Below are positions 19,266 to 49,583 of a stretch of DNA of 64,000 nucleotides, piece after piece. This DNA comes from Minisyncoccia bacterium (GTDB taxonomy: Bacteria; Patescibacteriota; Minisyncoccia; Phycocordibacterales; Zambryskibacteraceae): NCBI GenBank assembly GCA_049304015.1, contig JBAQNS010000009.1, positions 3,228 to 67,227 on the forward strand. The letters are read 5' to 3'. Under the pieces are notes generated by a model that saw nothing but the letters and a program-made list of their open reading frames with translations, was not told the DNA's origin and ran no database searches. The stretch's first letter is position 1, and each line of letters begins with the position of its first letter. The translations under genes and the position numbers were made by a program.

Positions 19266-19661
19266 ATGAAAATAAATCTCAAGGGAACAGGAATTGTGTT
19301 AACTGATGCGATTACCGACTATGCCACTAAAAAAATTGGAACCCTTGAGAAGTTTGTAGACAAGAAACTTGATGGAGTGATATTCAGAGTCGAGGTAGGG
19401 AAGACGACCAAGCACCACAAGGGTGGTGACGTCTTTAAAGCAGAAGTAAATGTTACTGGTGGTGGACTTGATATATATGCAGTGGCAGAAGCAGAAGATT
19501 TGTATGCAGCCATAGACCTCGTAGAAGAAGAAGTGCAGAGGGAATTAGTGCAAGGTAAGACCAGAAAACTAAAACTTCTTCGACGTGGCCAGCGAGCCAT
19601 AAAAGATTTAATGAAAGATTTTCCTTGGGCATTAAAGCGCTTTAAAAAAGGCAAGGAATAA
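19266..19661 (+). CDS. hpf: Ribosome hibernation promoting factor (RaiA/HPF short form)
   Basis: MKINLKGTGIVLTDAITDYATKKIGTLEKF...FRVEV...FKAEVNV is typical of the S30EA family. Confidence 0.85.
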   Translation: MKINLKGTGIVLTDAITDYATKKIGTLEKFVDKKLDGVIFRVEVGKTTKHHKGGDVFKAEVNVTGGGLDIYAVAEAEDLYAAIDLVEEEVQRELVQGKTRKLKLLRRGQRAIKDLMKDFPWALKRFKKGKE

Positions 19662-19689
19662 GGGTAATTCTATATTTTAATATAAGTGC

Positions 19690-19717
19690 TTGACAAAACC
19701 TGTGAAAGGTGTATACT
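19690..19717 (+). promoter_or_regulatory. Consensus sigma70 promoter TTGACA-16 nt-TATACT
   Basis: Seen directly: cTTGACAaaacctgtgaaaggtgTATACTtcttgtA. No protein-coding gene follows on this strand. Confidence 0.5.
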
Positions 19718-19723
19718 TCTTGT

Positions 19724-20017
19724 AGAAGCTTTCTTACCGCCTGTGTGGACTAAGCGGTGAGATTGGAACGGGGCTGAAGTGGTCCACAACCAGTTGTTGG
19801 GAGAAGTAGAAACCAGTGAGTAGTCAATGTTCGATTGTCCAGCAGACTCGTCCCTCGAGACAGGGAAAAGAGGCGCTGAACAAGCAAGACAGGATTGATT
19901 CACCGTAGTACCTACCCGGGAACAAACAACTGGTCGTGTCATCTGCACCGTTCCGTGGATGATAATAGGGGTGTCTCGCATACAAGGCCCCGAAAAAACA
20001 GTTGTCCGGGTTTTTTT
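19724..20017 (+). ncRNA. Candidate structured ncRNA of unknown class (~290 nt, GC-rich)
   Basis: Bounded by the promoter above and a GC stem plus T7 at 20007-20017. Local GC is about 50% in a ~35% genome, with many local complementarities (e.g. TGTGGAC...GTCCACA, ACCGC...GCGGT). Neither overlapping ORF looks protein-like. Confidence 0.4.
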
Positions 20018-20020
20018 AAA

Positions 20021-20075
20021 ACCAAAGTGGCCAAGGCCACAAACAATACAGCGCTCCCTTCGGGTGAGCGCTATT
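20021..20075. terminator. Two tandem hairpins (GTGGCCaaGGCCAC and AGCGCTC-ccUUCGgg-t-GAGCGCT) terminating convergent transcripts
   Basis: Perfect palindromes, one with a UUCG tetraloop. T-rich tracts follow on the minus strand (fmt end) and the plus strand. Confidence 0.45.
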
Positions 20076-20081
20076 TTCATA

Positions 20082-20825
20082 TTAAAAAATTACCTTTGGG
20101 TTACCACGGAGATAATCTTTGTATTCCATTTCTTTCTTACCAGGAGGTATAACTCTGTCTGGCACAAATTTATTATCTTCTATATGAGCCTTAGTGATAA
20201 CTAACTCTCCTTTTCTGGCTCTTGGCCAAATTTCATAAGCACGAACTTTGCGAAGAGCAATTTCTGGAGAATCATTTGTAATATCTGCGTTTTCTTTTCT
20301 TATCATCTTTGTATATGATGTGCTCTCGTTTGTTTGCTCAACTTCCTTCACTTCACCATTAATATATTTGGGTAAAATTTCTACGAGCATTTCTCCTCCG
20401 ACTTTGGCCAATATTCTTTCAGTTTCTGAGTATCCAAGGTTTAGAGGCAACTCAACTTCCTTTTGAGCAAGTATTGGTCCTTCGTCCATTCTTTCATTTA
20501 TTCTTTGGATAGTAACACCGGTTTTTTCACCACTAAGGATGGCTCCTTGAATTGGTGAAGGTCCACGAAGTTTGGGTAATAGAGATGGGTGAACATTTAA
20601 AGTTTTAAACTTCGGCATATAGATAAGCCAATCAGGGAGAATCTTTCCAAACGAAGCTACTATGAATACATCCGCATTAATAGACTCAAGTTTCTCTTTA
20701 TCTAATGGTTCATGAGCAGAAGTAATAGAGAGTGCTGGTGTGAAGCCATGGTCTACAAGCTCCTTTAGAATAAGTTTAGAAAATTCTGATGAACCAAAAT
20801 ATACAAAGCGAATGTTATTTTGCAT
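20082..20825 (-). CDS. fmt: Methionyl-tRNA formyltransferase
   Basis: N-terminal formyltransferase fold (IRFVYFGSSEFS...) and an HPSLLPKLRGPSPIQ motif. Start taken at MQNNIRF; overlaps the def stop by 11 nt. Confidence 0.85.
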   Translation of the reverse strand: MQNNIRFVYFGSSEFSKLILKELVDHGFTPALSITSAHEPLDKEKLESINADVFIVASFGKILPDWLIYMPKFKTLNVHPSLLPKLRGPSPIQGAILSGEKTGVTIQRINERMDEGPILAQKEVELPLNLGYSETERILAKVGGEMLVEILPKYINGEVKEVEQTNESTSYTKMIRKENADITNDSPEIALRKVRAYEIWPRARKGELVITKAHIEDNKFVPDRVIPPGKKEMEYKDYLRGNPKVIF

Positions 20826-21351
20826 TTTTTTGAGGTGGAATGTTTTCCACATTTTCTGCCTTATCAATAAAGAGGACACCATTTAAGTGGTCAACCTCGT
20901 GTTGAAATATCTGAGCCATTAATCCAGACGCACCTTTTTGAAATTTTTTGCCGTATTCATCATAGGCTTCAATGGTAGCTTTGCTACTCCTTTCTACTTG
21001 TCCATATAGCCATCTTACAGAAAGACATCCTTCCTCCATTTTCTTTTTTGTTTTTGAAAGTTTCTTTATGACAGGATTAATGAAAACCTGATCAGGGAAA
21101 ATAGATTTTTCTTTTATATCTTCATCATTGTTACTAATTATAGAGATTGTCCTGCCACTTATCACAAATATTCTTAAACTCTCACCAATCTGAGGTGCTG
21201 CTATGGCTACTCCATCGTCTTCTTTCTTTAGAGCACGTTTCATCTTTTCCAAAACAATTTGAATTCTTTTTGTCTTAATATCTTCAATTTTTACCGGTTT
21301 GGCATGTTGTCTTAGAACCGGTGAAGTCATTTGATGTATTAGTCCTTTCAT
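20815..21351 (-). CDS. def: Peptide deformylase
   Basis: Three Def motifs: GIAAPQIG, EGCLS and QHEVDHLNG. Confidence 0.9.
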   Translation of the reverse strand: MKGLIHQMTSPVLRQHAKPVKIEDIKTKRIQIVLEKMKRALKKEDDGVAIAAPQIGESLRIFVISGRTISIISNNDEDIKEKSIFPDQVFINPVIKKLSKTKKKMEEGCLSVRWLYGQVERSSKATIEAYDEYGKKFQKGASGLMAQIFQHEVDHLNGVLFIDKAENVENIPPQKNAK

Positions 21352-28004: not shown

Positions 28005-30629
28005 ATGGAGAAAAATAAAAACAAAAATAAAGAGGATTTAATCATAGTGAAGGGTGCCCGAACACACAATCTAAAGAACCTAAGTGTGGAGATGCCTCGC
28101 AACAAAATGATTGTTTTCACAGGACTTTCTGGTTCAGGCAAGTCTTCTTTGGCTTTTGATACTATTTTCGCAGAAGGACAAAGGCGCTATGTAGAATCAC
28201 TATCTTCTTATGCTCGCCAGTTTTTAAAACAAATGCAGAAGCCTGATGTAGATGAAATTAGCGGTCTGTCTCCAGCCATATCCATTGATCAAAAATCCCG
28301 TTCAAATAACCCTCGTTCAACTGTGGCCACTATCACCGAGATATATGACTATCTACGTATTTTGTATGCTCGTATTGGCCGGCCACACTGTTTAGTGTGT
28401 GGTTCAGAAATCAAGAAACTTTCAAATGAAGAAATAAAAACATTTGTCTTAGAAAAAATTGCCACTTATTCAACTGAAAATAAATCTAAAAAGATTGCCT
28501 TACCTGTTTATGTAGAAATTTATTCTCCAATAGTTCGAGGTAGAAAAGGAGAATACTACCAACTTCTATATGACCTCTTAGGTAAGGGCTACACTGAAGT
28601 ATTGGTTGATGGAGAAAGAAAAAAACTTCGAGAGAGAATAGTGCTGACTAAAACCAAAGTACACAATATATCAGTACTGGTTGATTCAATTAGCCTGAAT
28701 GAATTTAAAACAGATGAGAAAACTGCGAGCGAAAGGTTGAGTGAAGCAATAGAGAAAGCTATTCATGAATCAGATGGACTTTTAGTAGTTAGATTTAGAG
28801 ATTTGGCAGATGAACAAAAACCAAAGAAAGAACAAAAAGAGGTAGAAGAATTTCTCATGTCTGCGAAGTGGGCTTGTCCAAAAGACGGATTCTCTTTCCC
28901 AGAAATTGAGCCTCGTTTGTTCTCTTTTAACTCTCCATATGGTGCATGCCCAGAATGCAATGGTCTAGGGACAAAATATCTGTTTGGTAATACTCCATGT
29001 GAAAAGTGTAAGGGTAAAAGACTTAGAGAAGAAGCCTTGCATGTTTTGATTGGTGGTAAGAATATTGTTGAATTAGTGGCTCTGTCTATTCATGATGCAA
29101 ATGAATTTTTTAAAAAATTAAAATTAACAATCAGAGAGAAAAATATTTCTAAGGTGGTGACCAAAGAAATCGAAGCCAGACTAGATTTTATGTTAAACGT
29201 GGGTATTGATTATTTAACCCTAGACAGACGAGCTCACACACTCTCGGGTGGAGAAGCTCAGCGTATTAGACTTGCGTCTCAGCTCGGTTCTGGTCTTGTG
29301 GGAGCCCTCTACGTGCTCGATGAGCCAACTATAGGTCTACACAGCAGAGATAATGATAGGCTAATAAAAACTCTTCATGAGCTACGCGATTTGGGGAACA
29401 CTATACTTATAGTTGAACACGATGAAGATACAATATATTCTTCTGATTATATTGTGGACATTGGTCCGGGCGCAGGCACACACGGTGGGCATGTGGTAGT
29501 GGCTGATTATTTGGACACTCTCCTCACAGCTAAAAAAAATGATTCAAAATCTTTAACTCTTTCTTATCTCAGAGAAGAATCAAGAATTGAAACTCCAGAA
29601 GTTCGAAGAACTAGTGAAAAGGGTGAAATAAAAATTCGCGCTGGGAAAATATTTAATATTAGACATTTGAATGTTGATATTCCCCTTGGTCGACTTATTG
29701 CAGTCACCGGAGTGTCTGGCTCAGGGAAATCTTCTTTTGTTTATGAAATTTTATACAAAAATTTACAAGCAAGATTAGAAAAAAGATATAGAAGTGCAGA
29801 GACATACAATGCTCAGTCTTTCACTGGTAGTGAGTATATTGGGAGAGCCATCATGATTGACCAGTCACCAATTGGTCGAACACCAAGAAGTAATCCAGCA
29901 ACTTATACTGGAGCATTTACATTTATTCGTGATCTCTTCGCAGAGTCTGCAGAAGCACGTGCTCGTGGATGGAAAGCTAATAGATTCTCATTCAATGTGA
30001 AAGGAGGTCGGTGTGAGACCTGTCAGGGCAATGGCATGATTGAAGTTGAGATGCATTTCCTTCCAACTGTCTATGTGCCTTGTGATGTCTGTAAGGGTAA
30101 AAGATTTATGAAAGAAACTCTGGAGGTTGAATACAAAAAGAAAAATATTTTTCAAATCCTAGAGATGACTGTTGAAGAAGCTTTAAAGTTTTATGAAGAT
30201 ATACCAGCAATCTATGACAGATTAAAATGTTTATGTGATGTTGGGCTTGGTTATCTTAAATTAGGTCAATCTGCTACCACTTTGTCTGGTGGGGAGGCCC
30301 AAAGAGTGAAGATTGCTTCCGAACTCTATCGTCCTCAACATCAAAAAACTATTTATATTTTGGACGAACCAACTATAGGACTCCATTATGAGGATGTGAA
30401 AAAACTTATAGAAATTCTCCAAATACTAGTAGACAAGGGCAATACAGTAATAGTCATTGAACACAATCTAGATTTTATTAAGAGTTGTGATTATGTATTA
30501 GATATTGGTCCAGAAGGTGGAAACAATGGTGGGGAATTAGTGGCTCAAGGGACACCTGAGGAGGTGGCTAATACAGATACTCATACAGGTGTTTATCTAA
30601 GAAAAATACTTAAAAAGCCTCGCCCGTAG
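28005..30629 (+). CDS. uvrA: Excinuclease ABC subunit A
   Basis: Two ABC ATPase modules ([12 protein letters not shown] and [11 protein letters not shown] Walker A, LSGGEAQR signatures) and zinc-finger CxxC pairs; 874 aa. Confidence 0.95.
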
Positions 30630-30643
30630 GCTATGGCCGAGGG
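30617..30643. repeat. GC-rich palindromic element copy A (GCCTCGCCC-gtaggctat-GGCCGAGGG) overlapping the uvrA stop codon
   Basis: Seen directly. The imperfect inverted repeat supplies the last codons (..PRP-stop) of uvrA. Confidence 0.55.
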
Positions 30644-31056
30644 AAAGAAAAAAGCAGAGTGCTAGCTCTGCTACCCATCGACGAGTGTCTGCCCGTTGCC
30701 TATTCGGCGAAGTGGGAGATCAAGCTCGAGAGGGTAATTCGGCATGCTCCCGTCTTCGTGCACAAGATCAGATATGTGCACAAGAATCATGTAGAGCTCG
30801 AACCAATCGGATCGTTTCATTAGTTGTTACTCGCTCGATGCTGGTCGGGTTTCAGTCACTCCATCGCATCTCATCCTTGTATCTACGAGCGCTGAGTGAT
30901 CAGGAGTTGAAGTTCGAAGCATCAACAATGTTTCTCTGTTGAGCTCGCGAACAGTCTTCTTGGCTTTAGGTTCACCTTGGCCATCTTTTGCACATGGCAT
31001 TCAAAGCTCCGGCTGAGGGTTTGTGCGAAGTCTTTTATGATAGTAAGATAGAAACA

Positions 31057-32307
31057 ATGAACAGTCAAGACTACAAGAAAATAGCCTTACCTGATGCACC
31101 GGGGGTGTATTTTTTCCTCGGACTTAAAAATGCCTCGCCCAAAAGCCTACGGCCGAGGGAAATCTTATATATAGGCAAGGCTACTAGTCTAAAGGATAGG
31201 GTGAAGAGTTATTTCTCAAACGATCTCATAGATACTCGTGGACCAAGATTAGTTCAGATGGTAGAAAAAGCTCAAAATATTAAATTTATTGAGACTCAAT
31301 CTGTGCTCGAAGCACTTATACTTGAAGCCAGTCAAATCAAAAAACACCAACCATATTTTAATTCTAAGGAAAAAGATGATAAGAGTTATAACTATGTGAC
31401 CATTACCGATGAAGATTTTCCTCAAATATTTATCACACGTGGACAAGGTACTTATGGCCCCTTCCCAAATGGTAGTGAACTAAGAGAAGCTCTAAAGATA
31501 ATCAGACGAATATTCCCATATAGAGACAATAAGTGCACCATGAAGAAACCCCTCGGCCATAGCTCGGCCACGGGCGAGGCTTGCTTTAATTCGCAAATAG
31601 GTCTTTGCCCTGGTGTTTGTGCTGGTCTCATGAGCAAGAGAGATTATAGAAAGCGAATTAAGTACATCAAACTTTTCTTTGAAGCCAAGAAAGATTTACT
31701 TATAAAAAATATTGAGAAAGAAATGAAACAGTTAGCTAAATTAGAAAAATTTGAAGAAGCAGAAAAGCTGAAGAGAACATTATATGCTCTCGAACATATT
31801 CAAGATATTGCACTAATAAAAAGAGATATAGAGAGAGGAACTTTAGAGAATGCTTATAGAATAGAAGCCTATGACATTGCGCATTTATCAGGCAAAGATA
31901 CAGTTGGAGTGATGACTGTGGTATTAAATGGCGAATTAGCCAAAGATCAATACAGAAAATTTAAAATAATTGGACAAAATAAGAAAGTAAACATTGATGA
32001 TACTGCTAATCTAAGGGAAATAATTAGACGCCGTCTTGGACACGCAGAGTGGGCACTGCCAAATCTTATAGTCATAGATGGGAGCACCGCCCAGATAAAT
32101 GCAGCAAGGAGTGTATTAAAGGAAAGAGGATTTCTAATAGAGATAGTTTCAGTAGTAAAGGATGAAAGGCACAAGGCTAAGGACATGATTGGTCTAAAAG
32201 GCACTGTAGAAAAGTGGGGTAGATCAATTCTTCTAGCTAACTCTGAAGCACACAGGTTCGCCATAAATTTTCATCGCAAATTGCGAAGCAAGGGATTTAG
32301 GATATAA
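31057..32307 (+). CDS. uvrC: Excinuclease ABC subunit C (short form lacking C-terminal HhH2)
   Basis: GIY-YIG motif (PGVYFF...ILYIGKATSLKDRVKSYF) and the C-terminal RNase-H-like endonuclease region (LIVIDGSTAQINAA). Start taken at MNSQDYKK; the upstream in-frame extension lies in GC-rich non-genic sequence. Confidence 0.85.
   Translation: MNSQDYKKIALPDAPGVYFFLGLKNASPKSLRPREILYIGKATSLKDRVKSYFSNDLIDTRGPRLVQMVEKAQNIKFIETQSVLEALILEASQIKKHQPYFNSKEKDDKSYNYVTITDEDFPQIFITRGQGTYGPFPNGSELREALKIIRRIFPYRDNKCTMKKPLGHSSATGEACFNSQIGLCPGVCAGLMSKRDYRKRIKYIKLFFEAKKDLLIKNIEKEMKQLAKLEKFEEAEKLKRTLYALEHIQDIALIKRDIERGTLENAYRIEAYDIAHLSGKDTVGVMTVVLNGELAKDQYRKFKIIGQNKKVNIDDTANLREIIRRRLGHAEWALPNLIVIDGSTAQINAARSVLKERGFLIEIVSVVKDERHKAKDMIGLKGTVEKWGRSILLANSEAHRFAINFHRKLRSKGFRI
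31132..31159. repeat. GC-rich palindromic element copy B inside the uvrC GIY-YIG coding region (in-frame)
   Basis: GCCTCGCCC-aaaagcctac-GGCCGAGGG encodes ASPKSLRPR, a ~9-aa insertion relative to the canonical GVY...(I/L)Y(V/I)GKA spacing. Confidence 0.55.
31550..31580. repeat. GC-rich palindromic element copy C (reverse orientation) inside uvrC coding region (in-frame)
   Basis: CCCTCGGCC-atagctcggccac-GGGCGAGGC is the reverse complement of the A/B arms; it encodes PLGHSSATGEA. Confidence 0.5.
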
Positions 32308-33930: not shown

Positions 33931-34006
33931 TGGTGGACCCTACCGGATTCGAACCGGTGACCTCCTCATTGCAAATGAGGCGCTCTACCAACTAAGCTAA
34001 GGGCCC
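33931..34006 (-). tRNA. tRNA-Ala (TGC), CCA encoded, with G3:U70
   Basis: Reverse complement is GGGCCCTTAGCTTAGTTGGTAGAGCGCCTCATTTGCAATGAGGAGGTCACCGGTTCGAATCCGGTAGGGTCCACCA: anticodon TGC, G3:U70 Ala identity pair, GGTTCGAATCC T-arm. Confidence 0.9.
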
Positions 34007-34069
34007 AAACTACTACAAGCGATAATAATAGTGGACAAAGGCCGAAAAATCAAGAAAATATAGTGTATT

Positions 34070-34140
34070 GGGCCTATAGTATAGTAGTAACACACGTCCA
34101 TGGCATGGACGAATCGCGGGTGCGATTCCCGCTAGGTCCA
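34070..34140 (+). tRNA. Non-canonical tRNA-like element, anticodon GGC (Ala-like, G3:U70), 71 nt, no encoded CCA
   Basis: GGGCCUA/UAGGUCC acceptor stem with G3:U70 and an anticodon stem-loop CGUCC-AUGGCAU-GGACG. The T-loop is UGCGAUU (G at the usual Psi55 position) and the D-arm is short/imperfect. Divergent to tRNA-Ala(TGC). Confidence 0.4.
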
Positions 34141-34153
34141 CTAATAAATAATT

Positions 34154-37967: not shown

Positions 37968-37996
37968 TTGACACCTCTATATATAAGGCGTATACC
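37968..37996 (+). promoter_or_regulatory. Sigma70-like promoter TTGACA-17 nt-TATACC upstream of second beta-helix gene
   Basis: Seen directly; same -35/-10 hexamers as at 40151 and nearly the same as at 19690. Confidence 0.5.
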
Positions 37997-38084
37997 GAAA
38001 GCAACAACTTATTAGAGGTGTTTTTGTGTGTTAAGTTGCCTTAATCAAGTATTATTTAAATTAACTAGTATTAATAACATTAAA

Positions 38085-43132: not shown

Positions 43133-44023
43133 TTGTCAGAGAGATTTAGTTTAGCTGACAATCTATTTAGTTCAATTTTGACCTCAAAAGGAGGGATATT
43201 GATTATCAAAGATCCTGGCTCTGGGAAGAGCTATGAAGTTGGTCAAAGAGTGGCTGAGACCGAAAGGTATCGGCTTTATCTCTGTAGACCAGAGGGTGAG
43301 TCTTCGGACCACCTGCTTCAAATCGCGGTGGAGGTGGAGCATAATGCTGCCCTCGATCGCGCGTCGTACGTTCTGGAAAGGCTCGAAGAAGAAGCTCGCA
43401 AGATCGAGGAAGAGTTCGCCAAGGTGAAAACCGAGCCGAATCACTTCCTGAATTACCAACTCTGTTTCCCCAAGGTCGTGGGTTCATTCATACCAGACGA
43501 TCAGGGTGGCAGACGAGTAAACATCCTTTGCTTCAGAGAGGTGGAGGATGTAGGCAAGGTTGTACCGCTACAGAACCTCGTAGAGACGGACAAGCTTCGT
43601 GCAGATTTGAGGTCGAGTGCTTGGATCATGGGGAAACTCCTCAAGATCCTCATCTTCCTCAATGATGCGAATGTGGTTGCTCATGATCTGTCGCTCGGCA
43701 ATGTTCTCATCGAACCCGAGCAACACTACGTCATCATTTTCAGTTGGGCTGACGCCGAATTGAAAGCTGGTGCAGTAGGTAGAGCAATCACGAGAAGTGA
43801 AATTCAAGCAGCTGCTCGCGTTGTCATCGAAGTGCTGGGAGGTACTCTCGAAGGAGGTATCCCCGGTGATGGTGGTCAAGAGCATGTTCAGTATCAGAAG
43901 TTTCTCTTCGACCTCGCACATGGCAGTGAAAGTAACGCGGCACTGGCTCACATGTCGTTCTACAAGTTGGTTGATAGTTTGTGGCCACGCGGTTTCTATC
44001 CATTCACCACCCACTCTCGGTAA
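43133..44023 (+). CDS. Protein-kinase-like/APH-family phosphotransferase (divergent) - first gene of high-GC island
   Basis: Gly-rich loop IKDPGSGKSYEV and catalytic loop VAHDLSLGNVLIE (compare HGDLHPGNIL of APH/CotS and HRDLKPENIL of kinases), followed by IIFSWADAE. High-GC codon usage. The start is ambiguous: TTG at 43133, or TTG at 43199 after an AAGGAGGG SD. Confidence 0.55.
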   Translation: MSERFSLADNLFSSILTSKGGILIIKDPGSGKSYEVGQRVAETERYRLYLCRPEGESSDHLLQIAVEVEHNAALDRASYVLERLEEEARKIEEEFAKVKTEPNHFLNYQLCFPKVVGSFIPDDQGGRRVNILCFREVEDVGKVVPLQNLVETDKLRADLRSSAWIMGKLLKILIFLNDANVVAHDLSLGNVLIEPEQHYVIIFSWADAELKAGAVGRAITRSEIQAAARVVIEVLGGTLEGGIPGDGGQEHVQYQKFLFDLAHGSESNAALAHMSFYKLVDSLWPRGFYPFTTHSR

Positions 44024-44040
44024 AACGGGAAGGAAGGACG

Positions 44041-45165
44041 ATGGGAAGCAGAACATTCTCGAGGGATGCCTACGTCAAGGCGAGCAGCTTGTACACCAAG
44101 CCGGGTGAGTCAACGACTGCCCGAGGTGAACAAGAAGTTCGTCGGACAGGCAAGCTGAATCCACTTGTGGATCCGGCTGAATTCGGAGTAGTGCGTGAAT
44201 CACGCATTCGCCTCGAAGATCGAGAAGGAGGTGGCTTCACTGTCACCGTGGGCACACCAGTGCCTGTCGAGTATCGTCTGGACACCACTGGTTCCATGGG
44301 TGACAACGTCGAACGGGCGTACAAGGCACTGCCGCATACGTGCGAGCATGTGGCCGCTGTACTGCCAGGCCGAGACCCCTTCTACTGCGCTTCGATTTTC
44401 GGTGATGTCGTCGACCAGTTCGTACTGTGTCGAGGACAATTCGAAGCCGAAGCAGAGAAGATGGTCAACCAACTCACGCTCATGGTTCCAGAAGGTAGCG
44501 GTGGAGACACCCCAGAAGATCCTCAGTACGGACTCTTCGGTGCCGCCTACCTTACCAACGCTTATCTGCAACGTATCGGTTTGCGCTCCTATGACTTCAC
44601 TGTCACGGACGCACCGATGCATGATCTGATTAGCGCCAAGCAGCTCAAGCGTATCTTCGGTGATGAAGTGTTCGAGAAGCTGAAGGAAAATGGCCAGTCG
44701 ATTTCAGCGAAGGATTTACCCTCCAATACAGAGATCGTCAAGGATCTCTTGAAGAGGGCTCATGCCTTTGCTTTCATGGTTGGCAATTCTGCCACCCACG
44801 CCTGGACCAGCCTCTACGGTTCCGAACACGTGATTCTTCTGCCCCGGATCGAGTACACTCCTCACATCATGGCCGTTATCATTGGCCTGACGGAAGGAAC
44901 TCTCGATTTGCGTTCATCCAAGGATTTCTTGACTGAACGCAACCTCAGCAAGGTCGAAGCACAGGGCATCATCGACGCAGTGGCGCACATCCCGCTCGGT
45001 GCACAGACCATGTGCCCCAATTTCGACAAGTTGCCCAAGGCAGGTGACATCTTCAAGGAGAAGACCGACCTCTGGCCGATCGATCCGGAAGACATTCCTA
45101 CTTCTGCTGCTCCGAAGAAGGGCAAGAAGGGCGGCAAGGAATCTGGCAAGGGTGGGTGGCTCTAG
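44041..45165 (+). CDS. von Willebrand factor A (vWA) domain protein with MIDAS motif
   Basis: RLDTTGSMGDN (DxTGS MIDAS), a later VTDAPMHD element, and a Lys/Gly-rich C-tail. GGAAGGAAGGA SD before the ATG at 44041. Confidence 0.7.
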   Translation: MGSRTFSRDAYVKASSLYTKPGESTTARGEQEVRRTGKLNPLVDPAEFGVVRESRIRLEDREGGGFTVTVGTPVPVEYRLDTTGSMGDNVERAYKALPHTCEHVAAVLPGRDPFYCASIFGDVVDQFVLCRGQFEAEAEKMVNQLTLMVPEGSGGDTPEDPQYGLFGAAYLTNAYLQRIGLRSYDFTVTDAPMHDLISAKQLKRIFGDEVFEKLKENGQSISAKDLPSNTEIVKDLLKRAHAFAFMVGNSATHAWTSLYGSEHVILLPRIEYTPHIMAVIIGLTEGTLDLRSSKDFLTERNLSKVEAQGIIDAVAHIPLGAQTMCPNFDKLPKAGDIFKEKTDLWPIDPEDIPTSAAPKKGKKGGKESGKGGWL

Positions 45166-45192
45166 GCTTTCACTTCGACCGAGGACGTGACG

Positions 45193-46566
45193 ATGAAAAA
45201 GATTTACGTCGTCACGGACCTTGGTCCTGGTGACGGTGGTAAGGGTGGTGTGGTCCACAAGATCAGCCACATGCAAGGTGCTCACACTATCCTCAAGGTA
45301 GGAGGAGCACAGGGAAGTCATGGAGTATCTACTTCGAGTGGAAAACGATTTGCCTTTAGTCAATTTGGTTGTGGCACCTTCGAAGGTGTTCGCACTCACT
45401 TGACCAAGAGGTTCGTTGCTTCACCTGAAGGGATACTCAACGAAGCGCAAGCTTTGGATCAAGGTTGTGGTTTGAGTGATGTCTACAGTCTGCTCACAGT
45501 GGATGAGGATGTCATTTGTGCCACTCCGTATCATGGCATCTCTTCACGCTTGAAAGAGCTTGCAAGAGGAGATAATCTTCGCGGTACGATTGGGACAGGG
45601 GTTGGTGAGGCGTTTCGCTACAACCAACGTTTTCCTGAACTGACTATCCGTGCGAAGGATCTCTTCAGCCAAAACCTAAGAGAGCTGCTGGCTGCAGTTA
45701 GAGACCAACTACACGTTGACCTCGAATCTGTAATTAGTGGTACTTTCTTAGAAAGTGATAGGGTCTTAGTTGAACAAGAAGTAGATCGTCTGCTTGATCC
45801 GAAATACCTTGAATTTATTTTGCATCGTTTTCGAACGGCTGCAAAGCATGTCCGAATAGTAGGCCAAGAGTATTTTCATGATCTTACCACCAGCTATGGT
45901 GTGATGGTTGTTGAAAGTTCTCATGGTGTACTGACGGATCATTTTCAAGGGTTTCATCCTCATACTTCAGCCATTCGAACACTTCCTCGCTTCACGCGTG
46001 GGATGCTCGAAGAAGTTGGATATGATGGCGAACTGGTGAACATTGGGGTAACCCGTGCATATCAAATTCGTCATGGTGCAGGGCCTATGCCAACAGCCGA
46101 TGAGGCTATGGCAGAAAACCTTTTACCAGGAAGTTCGAAGGATGAGAATCGCTATCAGGGAAAGGTGCGTGTTGGTCCACTTGATTTGGTACTGCTTCGT
46201 TATGCGATAGCAGCCTGTGGTGGACCAGATGCATTCGACGGCTTGGCTGTCACCTGGTTCGATCAAATCCAGGAGAATGGATCTTGGTTTTTGTGTCGGA
46301 GCTACAAGGGAGCAACAGATCAAAACTTTTTCACCCCACAAGGTGAGTTGAAGGTTCGATTTGGAGATGATGAAGAACAGTTGAAGTATCAGGAGGAACT
46401 TGGTCACCATCTAGAAAGGTGCGTACCAGTGCTCACAGAGCACACAGTTTCTCCTGGTCCCAACTTTAACTTCCTCACTTGCTCTGCAGTATTGAATGAA
46501 GCACTTCGAGTACCTGTACGGATGGTCTCGTTCGGATCTACCGAACAAGAAAAATTGTGTAGGTGA
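45193..46566 (+). CDS. Adenylosuccinate synthetase (PurA)-family protein, highly divergent
   Basis: PurA hallmarks present: GDGGKGG (cf. GDEGKGK), GGAQGSHG (cf. GGHNAGHT), GTIGTGVGEA (cf. GTTGRGIGP), TRAYQIRHGAGPMPT (cf. TRVGAGPFPTE), VRVGPLDLVLLRYA (cf. GWLDTVAVRRA). The Asp-binding GATTGRRRR loop is replaced by NRYQGKVRVG and Gln224 (EGAQG) is replaced by His (ESSHG). Confidence 0.75.
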   Translation: MKKIYVVTDLGPGDGGKGGVVHKISHMQGAHTILKVGGAQGSHGVSTSSGKRFAFSQFGCGTFEGVRTHLTKRFVASPEGILNEAQALDQGCGLSDVYSLLTVDEDVICATPYHGISSRLKELARGDNLRGTIGTGVGEAFRYNQRFPELTIRAKDLFSQNLRELLAAVRDQLHVDLESVISGTFLESDRVLVEQEVDRLLDPKYLEFILHRFRTAAKHVRIVGQEYFHDLTTSYGVMVVESSHGVLTDHFQGFHPHTSAIRTLPRFTRGMLEEVGYDGELVNIGVTRAYQIRHGAGPMPTADEAMAENLLPGSSKDENRYQGKVRVGPLDLVLLRYAIAACGGPDAFDGLAVTWFDQIQENGSWFLCRSYKGATDQNFFTPQGELKVRFGDDEEQLKYQEELGHHLERCVPVLTEHTVSPGPNFNFLTCSAVLNEALRVPVRMVSFGSTEQEKLCR

Positions 46567-46588
46567 ATTCAAACCACAAGGAGTAACC

Positions 46589-47737
46589 GTGGGAACTTCT
46601 GCAGAACCGACCGTTGGTGACGCTGTCACCACGAGGCTCACCGAATTGGGTGTCGAACCGACTGTGATCGAGAAGATCAGGACGGACCTCGGCGCCACTT
46701 CGGTGGACGATCTGGCTGGCCTCAACGAGAGTGATCTCGTCGGCGCCGGCATGAAGGCTCTTCCGGCGAGGAATCTCGTCGCAAAGCTCAGGAAGGCCGC
46801 AGCGGAAGCTGCTGCTCCTGCCGCAAGTGCAGTCAGCACGATGTCGTTCGAAGGCGTACTGCCGGCAGTGCCGGATGATACGTCATGGCTTGCGGCACTT
46901 CGTGCAGGTGGAGTTCTGAAGGTCGATCAGTCGACCGTCATCTCCGCCGTTCGTGCAGGACTCGCTCACCGGGTCGGACTCTTCGAAGTTCCGGATCTGC
47001 TCGTCGCAGAGATGGAGCGGTTCTCGGATGCGAACGAAGAGCAGGTCGACCCGGAGTTCTTCAAGCTCCGCAAGATGCTGACTCGCAAGTCGTACGGCGA
47101 TATCTTCGAGGCCATCGAAGGACTCGAAGGCTCGTACGTCACCGAGGGTCGCAAGAAGGAACTCTTCAGCCGTCTCGATGGCAAGTTGTGGCCGGCAATC
47201 ATCAGCTTCAACGGCGCCCTTAAGGCGTGGCAGGAAGCATGGATGCAGGGTGCAGCCAATCCTGCCATCATGATGAGCGCGATCTTTGCGGCTTCTGGTA
47301 CTGGTGGTGGAGCGATGCCTCCGGGCATGATGCAGCCACCCGATACCGGCGTCCTGCGTGACAACGCGGCAGCCGTGGCGGACGCAGTCAATCGCGTTTT
47401 CGCTGGGACTGGCGTGCAGATCGCCGCGGCCCTCGCATACGAGGCGTCGCGTATCAAGGAGACTCTCACGAACCCGCGGTTGCCCGCCCTTATCGGTGCG
47501 GCCAATCGCGACCAGATGCTTCGTCAGCTGGGTGTGGCCGTTTCGGCGACCTATCCTCGCCTCGAGATGAACCTGACCAAGTTCGTGCTGGCGGTTCTGC
47601 AGGCACAGGACCAGCCGGCCGGCAACGAAGAGCTTCAGTACTTCGGTGCCATGTACATGCTCGGGTCCCAGATCCCCTGGGAGCAGCTGGGTTCGACTGG
47701 CAAGCCGTCGGGTATCGGCGGCGGTCGTCGCCTCTAG
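46589..47737 (+). CDS. Hypothetical protein with tandem N-terminal HeH/SAP-like motifs and Gly/Met/Pro-rich central segment
   Basis: GTG start after a GGAG SD; LTELGVEPTVIEKIR and LAGLNESDLVGAGMKALPARNLVAKLRKAA helix-extension-helix patterns; GTGGGAMPPGMMQPP segment; high-GC codon usage. Confidence 0.55.
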   Translation: MGTSAEPTVGDAVTTRLTELGVEPTVIEKIRTDLGATSVDDLAGLNESDLVGAGMKALPARNLVAKLRKAAAEAAAPAASAVSTMSFEGVLPAVPDDTSWLAALRAGGVLKVDQSTVISAVRAGLAHRVGLFEVPDLLVAEMERFSDANEEQVDPEFFKLRKMLTRKSYGDIFEAIEGLEGSYVTEGRKKELFSRLDGKLWPAIISFNGALKAWQEAWMQGAANPAIMMSAIFAASGTGGGAMPPGMMQPPDTGVLRDNAAAVADAVNRVFAGTGVQIAAALAYEASRIKETLTNPRLPALIGAANRDQMLRQLGVAVSATYPRLEMNLTKFVLAVLQAQDQPAGNEELQYFGAMYMLGSQIPWEQLGSTGKPSGIGGGRRL

Positions 47738-47766
47738 AACCAAATCTCTCAATAAGTACATTAGTT

Positions 47767-47797
47767 GGGCGGATACGATTAGTGTCCGCCCTTTTTC
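47767..47797 (+). terminator. Rho-independent terminator (GGGCGGA-N11-TCCGCCC followed by T5) closing the high-GC island
   Basis: Seen directly; composition returns to low GC immediately after. Confidence 0.6.
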
Positions 47798-47807
47798 ATT
47801 GCCTAAT

Positions 47808-49583
47808 TTATGAAAGTTTAGGGAGAAAAACTCTTTGGGTAAAAAGTTTAAGTGCAGTTTGTCTAAATCCTGAATCCCAAAATACACTCTTTCCATCAAC
47901 AAGTTCGGAATGTTCAGTATGCAATCCGCCGGAGGGAGGTAAAAATTTCTTGTACCCCTTGTGCATCAGTCTGTATTGCAAGGTGTCTCTTTCAAGTTCC
48001 TCTAAGAAAACTCTTCGTGCAGGCAATCCATAAATTTCACCATTATTGTAAAAATATTGAGTCAAAAGTTTTTCGTGCAAATCTTTTATCACTTGTTTGT
48101 CTCCATCCCAAACTGCTCCAAACAAAACATGGGTCCAGTAACTTTCTCCTACGAATGGTTCTGGTTTATCAAAATCATGAACCTTTAATCCAATTGGTGC
48201 TTCCTCTAACCAAAACTCTATAGTGTCTCCATGAGCATATTTTTGAGGAAGCTTTGACTTGAGTAACTCCTTAACTCTCTCCTTATCCTCCAATTTAATT
48301 TCAGGTTTAACAAAAATAGCCAAATCTAAGTCAGAATTTGATGTCCCATAGCCCTTAAGTTTTGAGCCAAAATACAATGCCACAGGGTATAAATACTGTG
48401 CCAGCTCTGCATCATTTTCGATTATTGAGGTAATATTATTCATAATTTCTTGATCATTATTAGCCTCAGTCAAATTTTTTGAAAACGGTCCTGATAGGGA
48501 AGTGAGTTTTAGACCAAGACTCAAAAATACAGCTTCATCCAAAATATTTAATTTGTTTAATCTATAGAAAAGAGTTGAAAGTTCATCTACAGTCTCTGGA
48601 GTTTTTTTATCCCAAAGTGACATTATGATATCCTCATATTTTTTGTATATTTTTATAGCTTCATCTTGATTTACTGCTGTTGTTGACTCTATGGCATCTC
48701 GGATACCAATAACCAAGGCGAGTTTGTCATCACTAGTTACGACCTTTTCATCCTCTAGTACTAGTTTTGCTATATCACGGGCTTTTGATTCTGTATCCCT
48801 TCTCTTTCTTTCACTACTTAACCAAGCAGTGCGTCCTTCTGTGACTATTTCTGGTTCTTCAATTTCAATTCTAGCTTCAGAAACATTAATTTGCCCCAAG
48901 TATTTATCCTCCACAAGTCCCAGGTCGACCGCTACAGTGAGTGCTTCATATGCATTTTGTCTAAAGACGTCATCATCACTTTCACTGATTAAGTTTAAAA
49001 CTTTATCTACACTAATTAATTCCTTTTCTATTAATTTAGGGATTAAGTGCGCAGCCTTTACCACTCTGGGCAAATCACTTTCTCTTAATTCTACTTCTAA
49101 TACATCTCCATCAACAAAATTTGCTCGGACATCATGTATATCTAAGCATGCTTCCCATGCATTCATGTATGTTGCTCTAAATTTTTCTGCAGCTTGTGAC
49201 AGTTCACTATCAGGAGCACCTAAATTTACACTCGGTAAATATTCGAATGGCACATAAAGCAAAGCTCTTTTATAATCTGGGTTTTCAAGTAAATGACTCA
49301 ATGATTCAAACAAATCTATAACCTGCTTCTCACTCAGCTGGCCTTCATTTAGTGCCAGTTCTAACTCAATATTAGGTTTTCGCATATTAGAAATCACAGC
49401 TTCAACACTTTCAATTATTTTTTTGCGTTCTTCTATTTGTTTAATGAATACCTCATTGTCCAAAATCTTTTCTGGCCAAACATTCGACTGATTAGTTGAA
49501 TCAAGTAGTGATTCAACTGCAGGTACGGTAAATTGTCTTTTCTCTGCTGATTCTTCGTTTAGATTTGTGCCCTCTCTATACAT
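47808..49583 (-). CDS. Pol-beta-superfamily nucleotidyltransferase domain protein with large N-terminal helical region
   Basis: C-terminal GS...D.D motif (FGSKLKGYGTSNSDLDLAIFV); 591 aa. The true start is probably downstream of 49583 because of the divergent overlap with ychF. Confidence 0.5.
   Translation of the reverse strand: MYREGTNLNEESAEKRQFTVPAVESLLDSTNQSNVWPEKILDNEVFIKQIEERKKIIESVEAVISNMRKPNIELELALNEGQLSEKQVIDLFESLSHLLENPDYKRALLYVPFEYLPSVNLGAPDSELSQAAEKFRATYMNAWEACLDIHDVRANFVDGDVLEVELRESDLPRVVKAAHLIPKLIEKELISVDKVLNLISESDDDVFRQNAYEALTVAVDLGLVEDKYLGQINVSEARIEIEEPEIVTEGRTAWLSSERKRRDTESKARDIAKLVLEDEKVVTSDDKLALVIGIRDAIESTTAVNQDEAIKIYKKYEDIIMSLWDKKTPETVDELSTLFYRLNKLNILDEAVFLSLGLKLTSLSGPFSKNLTEANNDQEIMNNITSIIENDAELAQYLYPVALYFGSKLKGYGTSNSDLDLAIFVKPEIKLEDKERVKELLKSKLPQKYAHGDTIEFWLEEAPIGLKVHDFDKPEPFVGESYWTHVLFGAVWDGDKQVIKDLHEKLLTQYFYNNGEIYGLPARRVFLEELERDTLQYRLMHKGYKKFLPPSGGLHTEHSELVDGKSVFWDSGFRQTALKLFTQRVFLPKLS

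Follow-up and report, generated by a model that had tools for sequence, protein, structure and literature searches.

The convergent genes hpf and fmt of a Minisyncoccia bacterium, in a 64-kb contig stretch (here termed the window, whose positions serve as coordinates throughout), are separated by a 420-bp spacer that, we propose, contains a free-standing gene for a trans-acting small RNA (sRNA) on the + strand, the body of which has been exchanged in this lineage. Working from sequence, we put the probability of this reading at roughly 55%. The spacer bears the marks by which such genes are recognized, namely a promoter of its own, no coding potential, and a terminator hairpin (20050–20072) followed by a U-rich tract. 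Genomes of the Candidate Phyla Radiation (CPR)/Patescibacteria are tiny and contain hardly any non-coding DNA, which makes 420 bp given over to a strongly promoted non-coding transcript conspicuous. To our knowledge, almost nothing is known of regulatory or structural RNAs in this group.

The promoter comprises a −35 box, TTGACA (19690–19695), and a −10 box, TATACT (19712–19717), which are spaced by 16 nt and together match the consensus at 11 of 12 positions. Both lie in a conserved block, GTGCTTGACAAAACCTGTGAAAGGTGTATACTT (19686–19718, + strand), from which we infer a transcription start near A19724. Five sites in the window match at 11 of 12 positions, compared with 2.4 ± 1.0 in shuffled sequences, and a match of this quality is therefore unremarkable by itself; judged from the alignments, the promoter is credible through its conservation in relatives and not through the consensus match alone. 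Loci L003, L044, L045/46 and L052 agree with the window at each of the 24 specified positions of CTTGACAAAA-N5-GAAAGGTGTATACT, even though at the promoter-sharing loci the third codon positions of hpf are merely 0.51–0.67 identical to those of the window. Similarity to the sister species ends right behind the −10 box. The near-consensus sigma-70 promoter of the initial annotation (TTGACA-16-TATACT, 19690–19717) is thus upheld, both in its 11/12 match and by the relatives. That surface-protein genes are driven by promoters of this type, as the same annotation added, is borne out at one other site, TTGACA-N17-TATACC (37968–37996), which lies 32 nt upstream of a 685-aa gene at 38028. There the −10 box is preceded by AAGGCG, and at the RNA promoter by AAAGGTG, which suggests a strong-promoter consensus specific to the lineage, RGG-N-GTATAC.

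To place the spacer among relatives, a scan with hpf of one genome per species yielded 41 loci, to which hpf and fmt protein searches and contig look-ups added more; the nearest relatives are metagenome-assembled genomes labelled Saccharibacteria, Parcubacteria, Zambryskibacteria or Paceibacterota. In most relatives hpf and fmt abut or overlap with no spacer between them, so the spacer is a lineage-restricted insertion; it is absent where hpf is at most 86% identical to that of the window, and in L060. The close relatives that carry an insert are L044 and L055 (two halves of one locus), L003, L045/46 and L056–58. Their hpf identities to the window are 93% (BLASTP; 92% by direct count) for L044, 91% for L003 and 88% for L045/46, and fmt of the L056–58 lineage is 84% identical to that of the window. 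Five distinct RNA-bearing loci were found at the hpf–fmt slot.

The sister species encode at this slot an RNA that we denote type A, or type C in its shorter L056 form (L003 4476–4650; L044 1016–1140 together with L055 1292–1235 (−); L045 2956–3150; L056 1757–1656 (−)). Type A is about 150 nt long; its 5′ hairpin leads into a three-way junction, and a terminator hairpin of 13 bp (10–13 bp across types A and C) closes the RNA. The terminator is followed in both types by a conserved CUCUUUCU tract, which resembles the 3′ end of 16S rRNA, and then by a hairpin GUGAC-N4-GUCAC. Between L003 and L044/L055, the RNA is 90% identical over 170 nt, whereas the third codon positions of hpf are 59% identical. 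Helices 2–4 are 100% paired across three sequences and include two compensatory double changes, and two further changes, to G·U, are workable on the + strand only. The L003 RNA folds with z = −4.8, and a covariance model (R1) built from L003, L044+L055 and L045 recovers the type C RNA of L056 (29.5 bits, E = 1e-6). On this comparative evidence, type A/C is a real RNA under purifying selection and constitutes an undescribed family.

The window RNA, which we denote type B, shares with the sister RNA its slot (following hpf and running towards the convergent fmt), the promoter block, the small hairpin and the bidirectional terminator. Both RNAs are GC-rich and non-coding, with a 5′ hairpin, a closed central domain and a 3′ hairpin followed by a pyrimidine or U tract. 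They differ in the centre, which is predicted to be a 190-nt rod in the window and a three-way junction of about 75 nt in the sister species, the window body being twice as long. Homology resumes at the small hairpin, where GUGAC-UUCG/UAAG-GUCAC in the sisters corresponds to GUGGC-CAAG-GCCAC in the window (a compensatory change from A-U to G-C), and at the bidirectional terminator. Across the body, the window and the sister share k-mers at chance level, and for this reason CUGAAGU, CCGUAGUA and UAGUCRAUG, which are common to the window and L003, were rejected as traces of homology. Yet the window hpf is closer to that of L044 (third-position identity 0.67) than the L003 hpf is to that of L044 (0.59). 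Because the RNA is 90% kept in the more distant pair and shows no similarity in the closer pair, the body was replaced rather than eroded by drift: the comparison requires that unrelated sequence took the place of everything from +1 to the small hairpin, with the promoter and the downstream hairpins kept.

No source for the new body was found in phages or plasmids (blastn), in viral contigs (in which two 20–21-nt body patterns and the promoter pattern went unmatched), in the rest of the window or in any of the fetched loci, where blastn and nhmmer returned the body itself and nothing else. With its filters off, R1 gave a single + strand match in the spacer, to the small hairpin (20027–20040; 4.4 bits). 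A miniature inverted-repeat transposable element or other repeat was considered and rejected, as its inverted arms are short and the 64 kb hold no second copy. The initial annotation had proposed a covariation analysis of the hpf–fmt spacers of related genomes and had named a lack of conservation and covariation there, together with a lack of transcription, as grounds for refuting its candidate RNA. No relative has a homologous body, and on conservation the body fails. What survives of its novel structured non-coding RNA is a + strand non-coding unit behind a conserved promoter; the structure of the body is unsupported by relatives. The locus as an RNA gene is still supported, because the sister RNA shows purifying selection and compensatory changes.

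As predicted thermodynamically from its single sequence, the type B transcript (19724–20017, + strand; 294 nt to a run of seven U residues (U7)) comprises three parts. A 9-bp 5′ hairpin, UCUUACCGC/GCGGUGAGA (19732–19762, + strand), has a mean pair probability of 0.98. It is followed by a 190-nt imperfect rod (19765–19954, + strand; inverted repeats I2 and I5) closed by GGAACGG/CCGUUCC, and then by an irregular, G·U-rich 3′ hairpin (19956–19963/20001–20008) with U7 at 20011–20017 (19956–20017 in all, + strand). The rod has a minimum free energy (MFE) of −65.2 kcal/mol (z = −2.93), which none of 200 shuffled sequences equalled. Its helix probabilities are mostly 0.9–1.0, and it includes a 10-bp helix (19789–19798/19925–19934) and an apical loop, CGAGAC, on a UCCCU/AGGGA stem. 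The rod centre (about 19802–19815/19904–19924) is poorly paired in this single-sequence prediction (probability 0.25–0.65). Three segments share CAGUUGU/ACAACUG (direct repeat D3), so that the 10-bp helix would compete with a long-range helix (19915–19932/19999–20010) that abuts U7; we see no regulatory consequence of this competition, because two more hairpins come within 60 nt.

These two hairpins are the palindromes that the initial annotation had placed after the T-run, and both are present. The small hairpin GUGGC-CAAG-GCCAC (20027–20040) can form on both strands and, on the − strand, is a terminator-like site for fmt. The second palindrome (20050–20072), AGCGCTCCC-TTCG-GGTGAGCGCT as DNA and with one bulge, belongs to a bidirectional terminator, AGCGCUCCC-UUCG-GGUGAGCGCU followed by AUUUUCAUAUU (20050–20083, both strands), which is common to L055 and L056. 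The GC stem plus T7 with which the same annotation had closed the region (20007–20017) stands only in part: the T7 is at 20011–20017, but the stem ahead of it is weak, being either a G·U-rich 8-bp helix or the long-range 19915–19932/19999–20010 pairing, and does not make a canonical terminator. The real + strand stop is probably the hairpin at 20050–20072, followed by AUUUUCAU.

In the reading that we favour, the conserved sigma-70-type promoter would fire near 19724 and produce a transcript of about 295 nt, ending at U7, or of about 360 nt, ending at the 20050–20072 terminator. This transcript would fold during transcription into the 5′ hairpin, the 190-nt rod and the 3′ hairpin, and would stop before fmt. 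As hpf has no terminator of its own, its read-through transcripts would carry the same RNA, which thus probably also forms the 3′ tail of hpf transcripts. The RNA would have to act in trans, because no gene in the same orientation lies downstream, only the convergent fmt behind two hairpin terminators. Our guess is a stable protein-binding or decoy role in preference to seed pairing, because the RNA is predicted to be nearly fully paired and, among the translation-initiation regions of the window, none pairs with it better than with shuffled controls (best duplex −31.8 kcal/mol, weaker than the shuffled-RNA mean of −34.5). By comparison with relatives, the locus itself is a young, lineage-restricted insertion between genes that otherwise abut.

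Several observations weigh against this reading. The type B body is one identical sequence recovered in three runs of one project and, coming from a single strain, offers no covariation or selection signal. The evidence that it is structured is thermodynamic, and although the rod scores well (z = −2.9), the whole 297-nt transcript is marginal in the folding model (MFE −96.3 kcal/mol, z = −1.8). The − strand of the body folds at least as well (z = −4.1), so the assignment to the + strand rests on the promoter and the sister RNA. A consensus scan found no + strand terminator, the U7 site being non-canonical. The missing complementarity to initiation regions fits a non-pairing role, and equally fits no role. 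Finally, the spacer contains a stop-free run of 136 codons on the − strand, a length reached in merely 0.35% of composition shuffles.

This run corresponds to an open reading frame (ORF) of 136 aa (19670–20080, − strand), which begins with an ATG directly after fmt, one base beyond its stop, and was annotated by one gene caller, NCBI having left the spacer empty. We nevertheless judge the ORF spurious, and the idea that it is a real, recently acquired protein gene hardly credible. Its codon log-likelihood ratio is −0.09 per codon, compared with 0.16–0.40 for genes. It has no Pfam match, and its sole match among 5.8e9 proteins is itself, which gave no route to homologous loci; an exhaustive phmmer search of 1.84e9 representatives added one match summed over about 27 tandem repeats, each insignificant. 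Its first 25 codons span both terminator hairpins and its last codons the conserved promoter, and no comparable ORF exists in L003, L045 or L056. That the ORFs called in the spacer are not genes, as the initial annotation held, is therefore supported; its description of them as composition artefacts goes too far, since the 136-codon run exceeds what composition predicts.

Other accounts keep the transcript but deny it an independent role. The body might be functionless, a recently acquired or rearranged GC-rich fragment that displaced the ancestral sRNA, the promoter having been conserved for some other purpose, such as opposing read-through from the convergent fmt-def-priA operon or extending and stabilizing hpf transcripts. 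We regard this as unlikely, though a serious contender: the body is an orphan in every search, from one strain and with a whole-transcript z of only −1.8, the locus readily gains and loses modules (the extra 100 nt of L045, no RNA in L060, the short duplications D1 and D3), and the same promoter style serves an ordinary gene at 37968. Against it, the sister RNA at this site is constrained in both sequence and structure, and a functional RNA is therefore what the site normally encodes. In addition, the stability of the rod exceeds what its composition predicts, and the GC enrichment and retained terminators fit a stable RNA. A cis-acting element, which could be a conditional terminator or could serve hpf as a structured 3′ UTR, is appreciably less probable still. 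The stretch from the hpf stop (19661) to the promoter contains no terminator, and the three CAGUUGU/ACAACUG segments allow mutually exclusive pairings, the second directly before U7; a switch between the rod helix and the 19915–19932/19999–20010 helix with U7 would set how far + strand transcription reaches towards and antisense to fmt. Either outcome, however, ends before fmt, given the two further hairpin terminators within 60 nt, a dedicated near-consensus promoter speaks for an independent RNA, and relatives without a spacer cope with overlapping hpf and fmt.

A known RNA that had escaped recognition would be a different matter. Rfam 15 models were run at the gathering score on the whole window and at E ≤ 10 on the spacer, L045, L052 and the loci of 17 relatives. 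The spacer (19600–20150) matched no family at either threshold, and the sister RNAs and relatives' loci gave noise, apart from tRNAs and, in L024 (3115–3391 (−)), a group I intron scoring 92 bits and located some 600 bp upstream of hpf. ARAGORN found no tRNA or transfer-messenger RNA (tmRNA) in the spacer. A tmRNA combines a tRNA-like domain (an acceptor stem with G·U, a T-arm and a CCA-proximal end) with a tag reading frame; GGGGCUGA at 19769 was rejected as a candidate, since no 3′ strand is complementary to it and a T-arm is missing. RNase P RNA, a multi-domain fold with a P4 pseudoknot, was set aside because GGAAAGUCC and ACAGAA-type regions are absent on inspection and the predicted fold is a rod. 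Signal recognition particle (SRP) RNA, in which helix 8 carries a GNAR tetraloop together with conserved loops, both symmetric and asymmetric, was set aside because there is no Rfam match and no helix-8 signature, the apical loop being CGAGAC. The Rfam scan that the initial annotation had recommended thus identified no known family, and its failure to recognize tmRNA, RNase P or SRP motifs is corroborated; that the window RNA belongs to no described family is supported. Literature searches on CPR non-coding RNAs and on patescibacterial 6S RNA yielded no relevant work.

A housekeeping RNA so divergent in the CPR that Rfam misses it is accordingly very improbable. The best fit would be a 6S-like RNA. 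6S RNA, which binds the RNA polymerase holoenzyme and templates product RNA, is a rod of about 180–200 nt in which stable helices enclose a large central bubble; the predicted window rod resembles this geometry loosely, in its length and in the position of a weak central region about 38–51 nt from its closing end. The other options are tmRNA, RNase P, SRP and raiA-motif RNA. The candidate is strongly promoted and GC-rich, and it lies beside raiA/hpf, as many raiA-motif RNAs do (PMC10861870). On the other side, no model matches even at E = 10, ARAGORN is silent and P4, T-arm and helix-8 signatures are missing; a housekeeping RNA is not swapped for unrelated sequence between species whose hpf is 90% identical; and in the sister RNAs a three-way junction takes the place of a rod.

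The comparison provides a concrete case in which an sRNA gene of an uncultured lineage turns over rapidly, its promoter and terminators being kept and its body conserved in some species and swapped in another, and it defines type A/C as a small new RNA family open to modelling and wider search. Taken alone, the window RNA is a single-strain orphan with no functional clue, and its significance is limited. A bolder extension, to which we give little credence and which draws on few sequences, is that the hpf–fmt slot is a dedicated high-expression site that exchanges whole structured-RNA bodies between a fixed promoter and fixed terminators. Unrelated GC-rich RNAs of 125–300 nt occupy the slot: type A, type C, the type B of the window and the extra module of L045. 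Were this so, the RNAs would be under diversifying and not only purifying selection, as expected of molecules in conflict; in an episymbiotic bacterium they might, for example, counter factors of phages or of the host as decoys or antidotes. The slot would be a hypervariable RNA locus of a new kind.

The flanking genes are hpf (19266–19661, + strand; Pfam Ribosomal_S30AE) and fmt (20082–20882, − strand; Pfam Formyl_trans_N), the latter heading the fmt-def-priA genes. The identical hpf protein is encoded in assembly GCA_049295975.1, labelled Minisyncoccia bacterium. In agreement with the initial annotation, the convergent spacer between them is more GC-rich than its surroundings, with a GC content of about 0.49 overall and 0.49–0.505 within 19700–19999, compared with 0.388 for the window; neighbouring 200-nt segments are mostly at 0.29–0.39, rising to 0.46 inside hpf. 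This composition is not unique, as many coding stretches in the window lie at 0.47–0.58.

The slot holds other material in relatives. In several of them an ORF of about 53 aa, encoding a single-pass membrane protein, starts at the hpf stop (ATGAATAA overlap), as in L056 (1813–1974 (−)), L060 (about 2790–2950 (−)) and L006 (about 2309–2500). The −35 box of the sRNA in L056 overlaps the last codons of this ORF, and L060 has the ORF and no RNA. In the window and its closest relatives, the membrane ORF is lost and its promoter-bearing end is kept. Different non-coding inserts lie between hpf and fmt in L009 (4406–4525), L012 (4367–4485) and L016 (4361–4570); those of L009 and L012 form a conserved pair (nhmmer E = 5e-20) with a weak copy in L032, and none matches Rfam at the gathering score. 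The extra module of L045 (3165–3250, about 100 nt) separates the small hairpin from the terminator; it is bounded by a helix of 12 bp (GAGAGAGGGUGG...CCGCCUUCUCUC) and has no Rfam match and no copy elsewhere in the fetched loci.

Among metagenome contigs, the promoter pattern matched only L053, which is the same as L045, and L052, a groundwater contig. In L052 (175–410 (−)) this promoter block stands before another structured RNA, of about 190 nt, in a different context. We do not count the locus as a homologue, because it may merely share the strong-promoter consensus of the lineage, which recurs at 37968. The RNA precedes a 24-codon ORF fragment at the contig end, which by eye resembles the start of nusA. 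The promoter abuts a 51-codon remnant of the 3′ end of a tyrosine-recombinase gene, and the adjoining region (414–2028) carries a helix-turn-helix gene, a gene for a 144-aa protein, which we guess to be Doc/Fic-like, and a full integrase gene. The arrangement looks like an integrative element with a duplicated integrase end.

Elsewhere in the window, 4.6 kb (43178–47836) have a GC content of 0.50–0.58, compared with 0.39 for the rest, and contain long overlapping ORFs on both strands; this may be foreign or compositionally odd coding DNA. A second GC-rich gap (30630–30987; 358 nt, GC 0.48) without a convincing ORF folds with z = −3.6 and lies between genes that we take, from their translations by eye, to be uvrA-like (28005–30629) and uvrC-like (30988–32307). 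It contains a terminator-like hairpin with a T-run (30672–30653 (−)), a weak promoter lies at 31068–31040 (−), and Rfam at E ≤ 10 gave only noise; the gap could be another unrecognized RNA or a decayed gene. Two tRNA-Ala genes (33931–34141; anticodons TGC and GGC) lie on opposite strands with 63 nt between their 5′ ends, which is scant space for two promoters.

Comparison with described RNAs sets the window candidate apart. The obvious analogue is the raiA motif RNA of Bacillota and Actinomycetota, a structured RNA of about 200 nt that is abundant, has its own transcription and usually lies beside raiA/hpf; it acts in trans, with a function that is still unknown, and its architecture comprises helices P1–P6, two pseudoknots and about 51 conserved positions, in a location upstream of raiA (66%) and downstream of comFC (PMC10861870). 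The window RNA likewise adjoins the ribosome-hibernation gene hpf, but it lies downstream of that gene, has fmt and no comFC as a neighbour, and comes from the phylum Patescibacteria; no raiA-motif match appeared in Rfam at E ≤ 10, assuming that the model is included there. With 6S RNA it would share a rod of about 190 nt with a more weakly paired middle, together with a strong promoter. In contrast to 6S RNA, however, it matches no 6S model at E ≤ 10, is not conserved even within its genus and has extra 5′ and 3′ hairpins, and its central ‘bubble’ is merely a low-probability region of an MFE prediction. Further parallels are the orphan bacterial sRNAs and the sRNAs embedded in 3′ UTRs: the window RNA similarly has its own promoter right after a stop codon and an intrinsic terminator, overlaps the 3′ UTR of the upstream gene and has a narrow phylogenetic range. 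Species-specific orphan sRNA genes combine a conserved promoter or terminator with a body that turns over fast. Compared with typical seed-pairing sRNAs, the window RNA is much longer, more fully paired in prediction and has no candidate target, and its body, unlike those of other orphan sRNAs, appears to have been swapped wholesale rather than to have evolved gradually.

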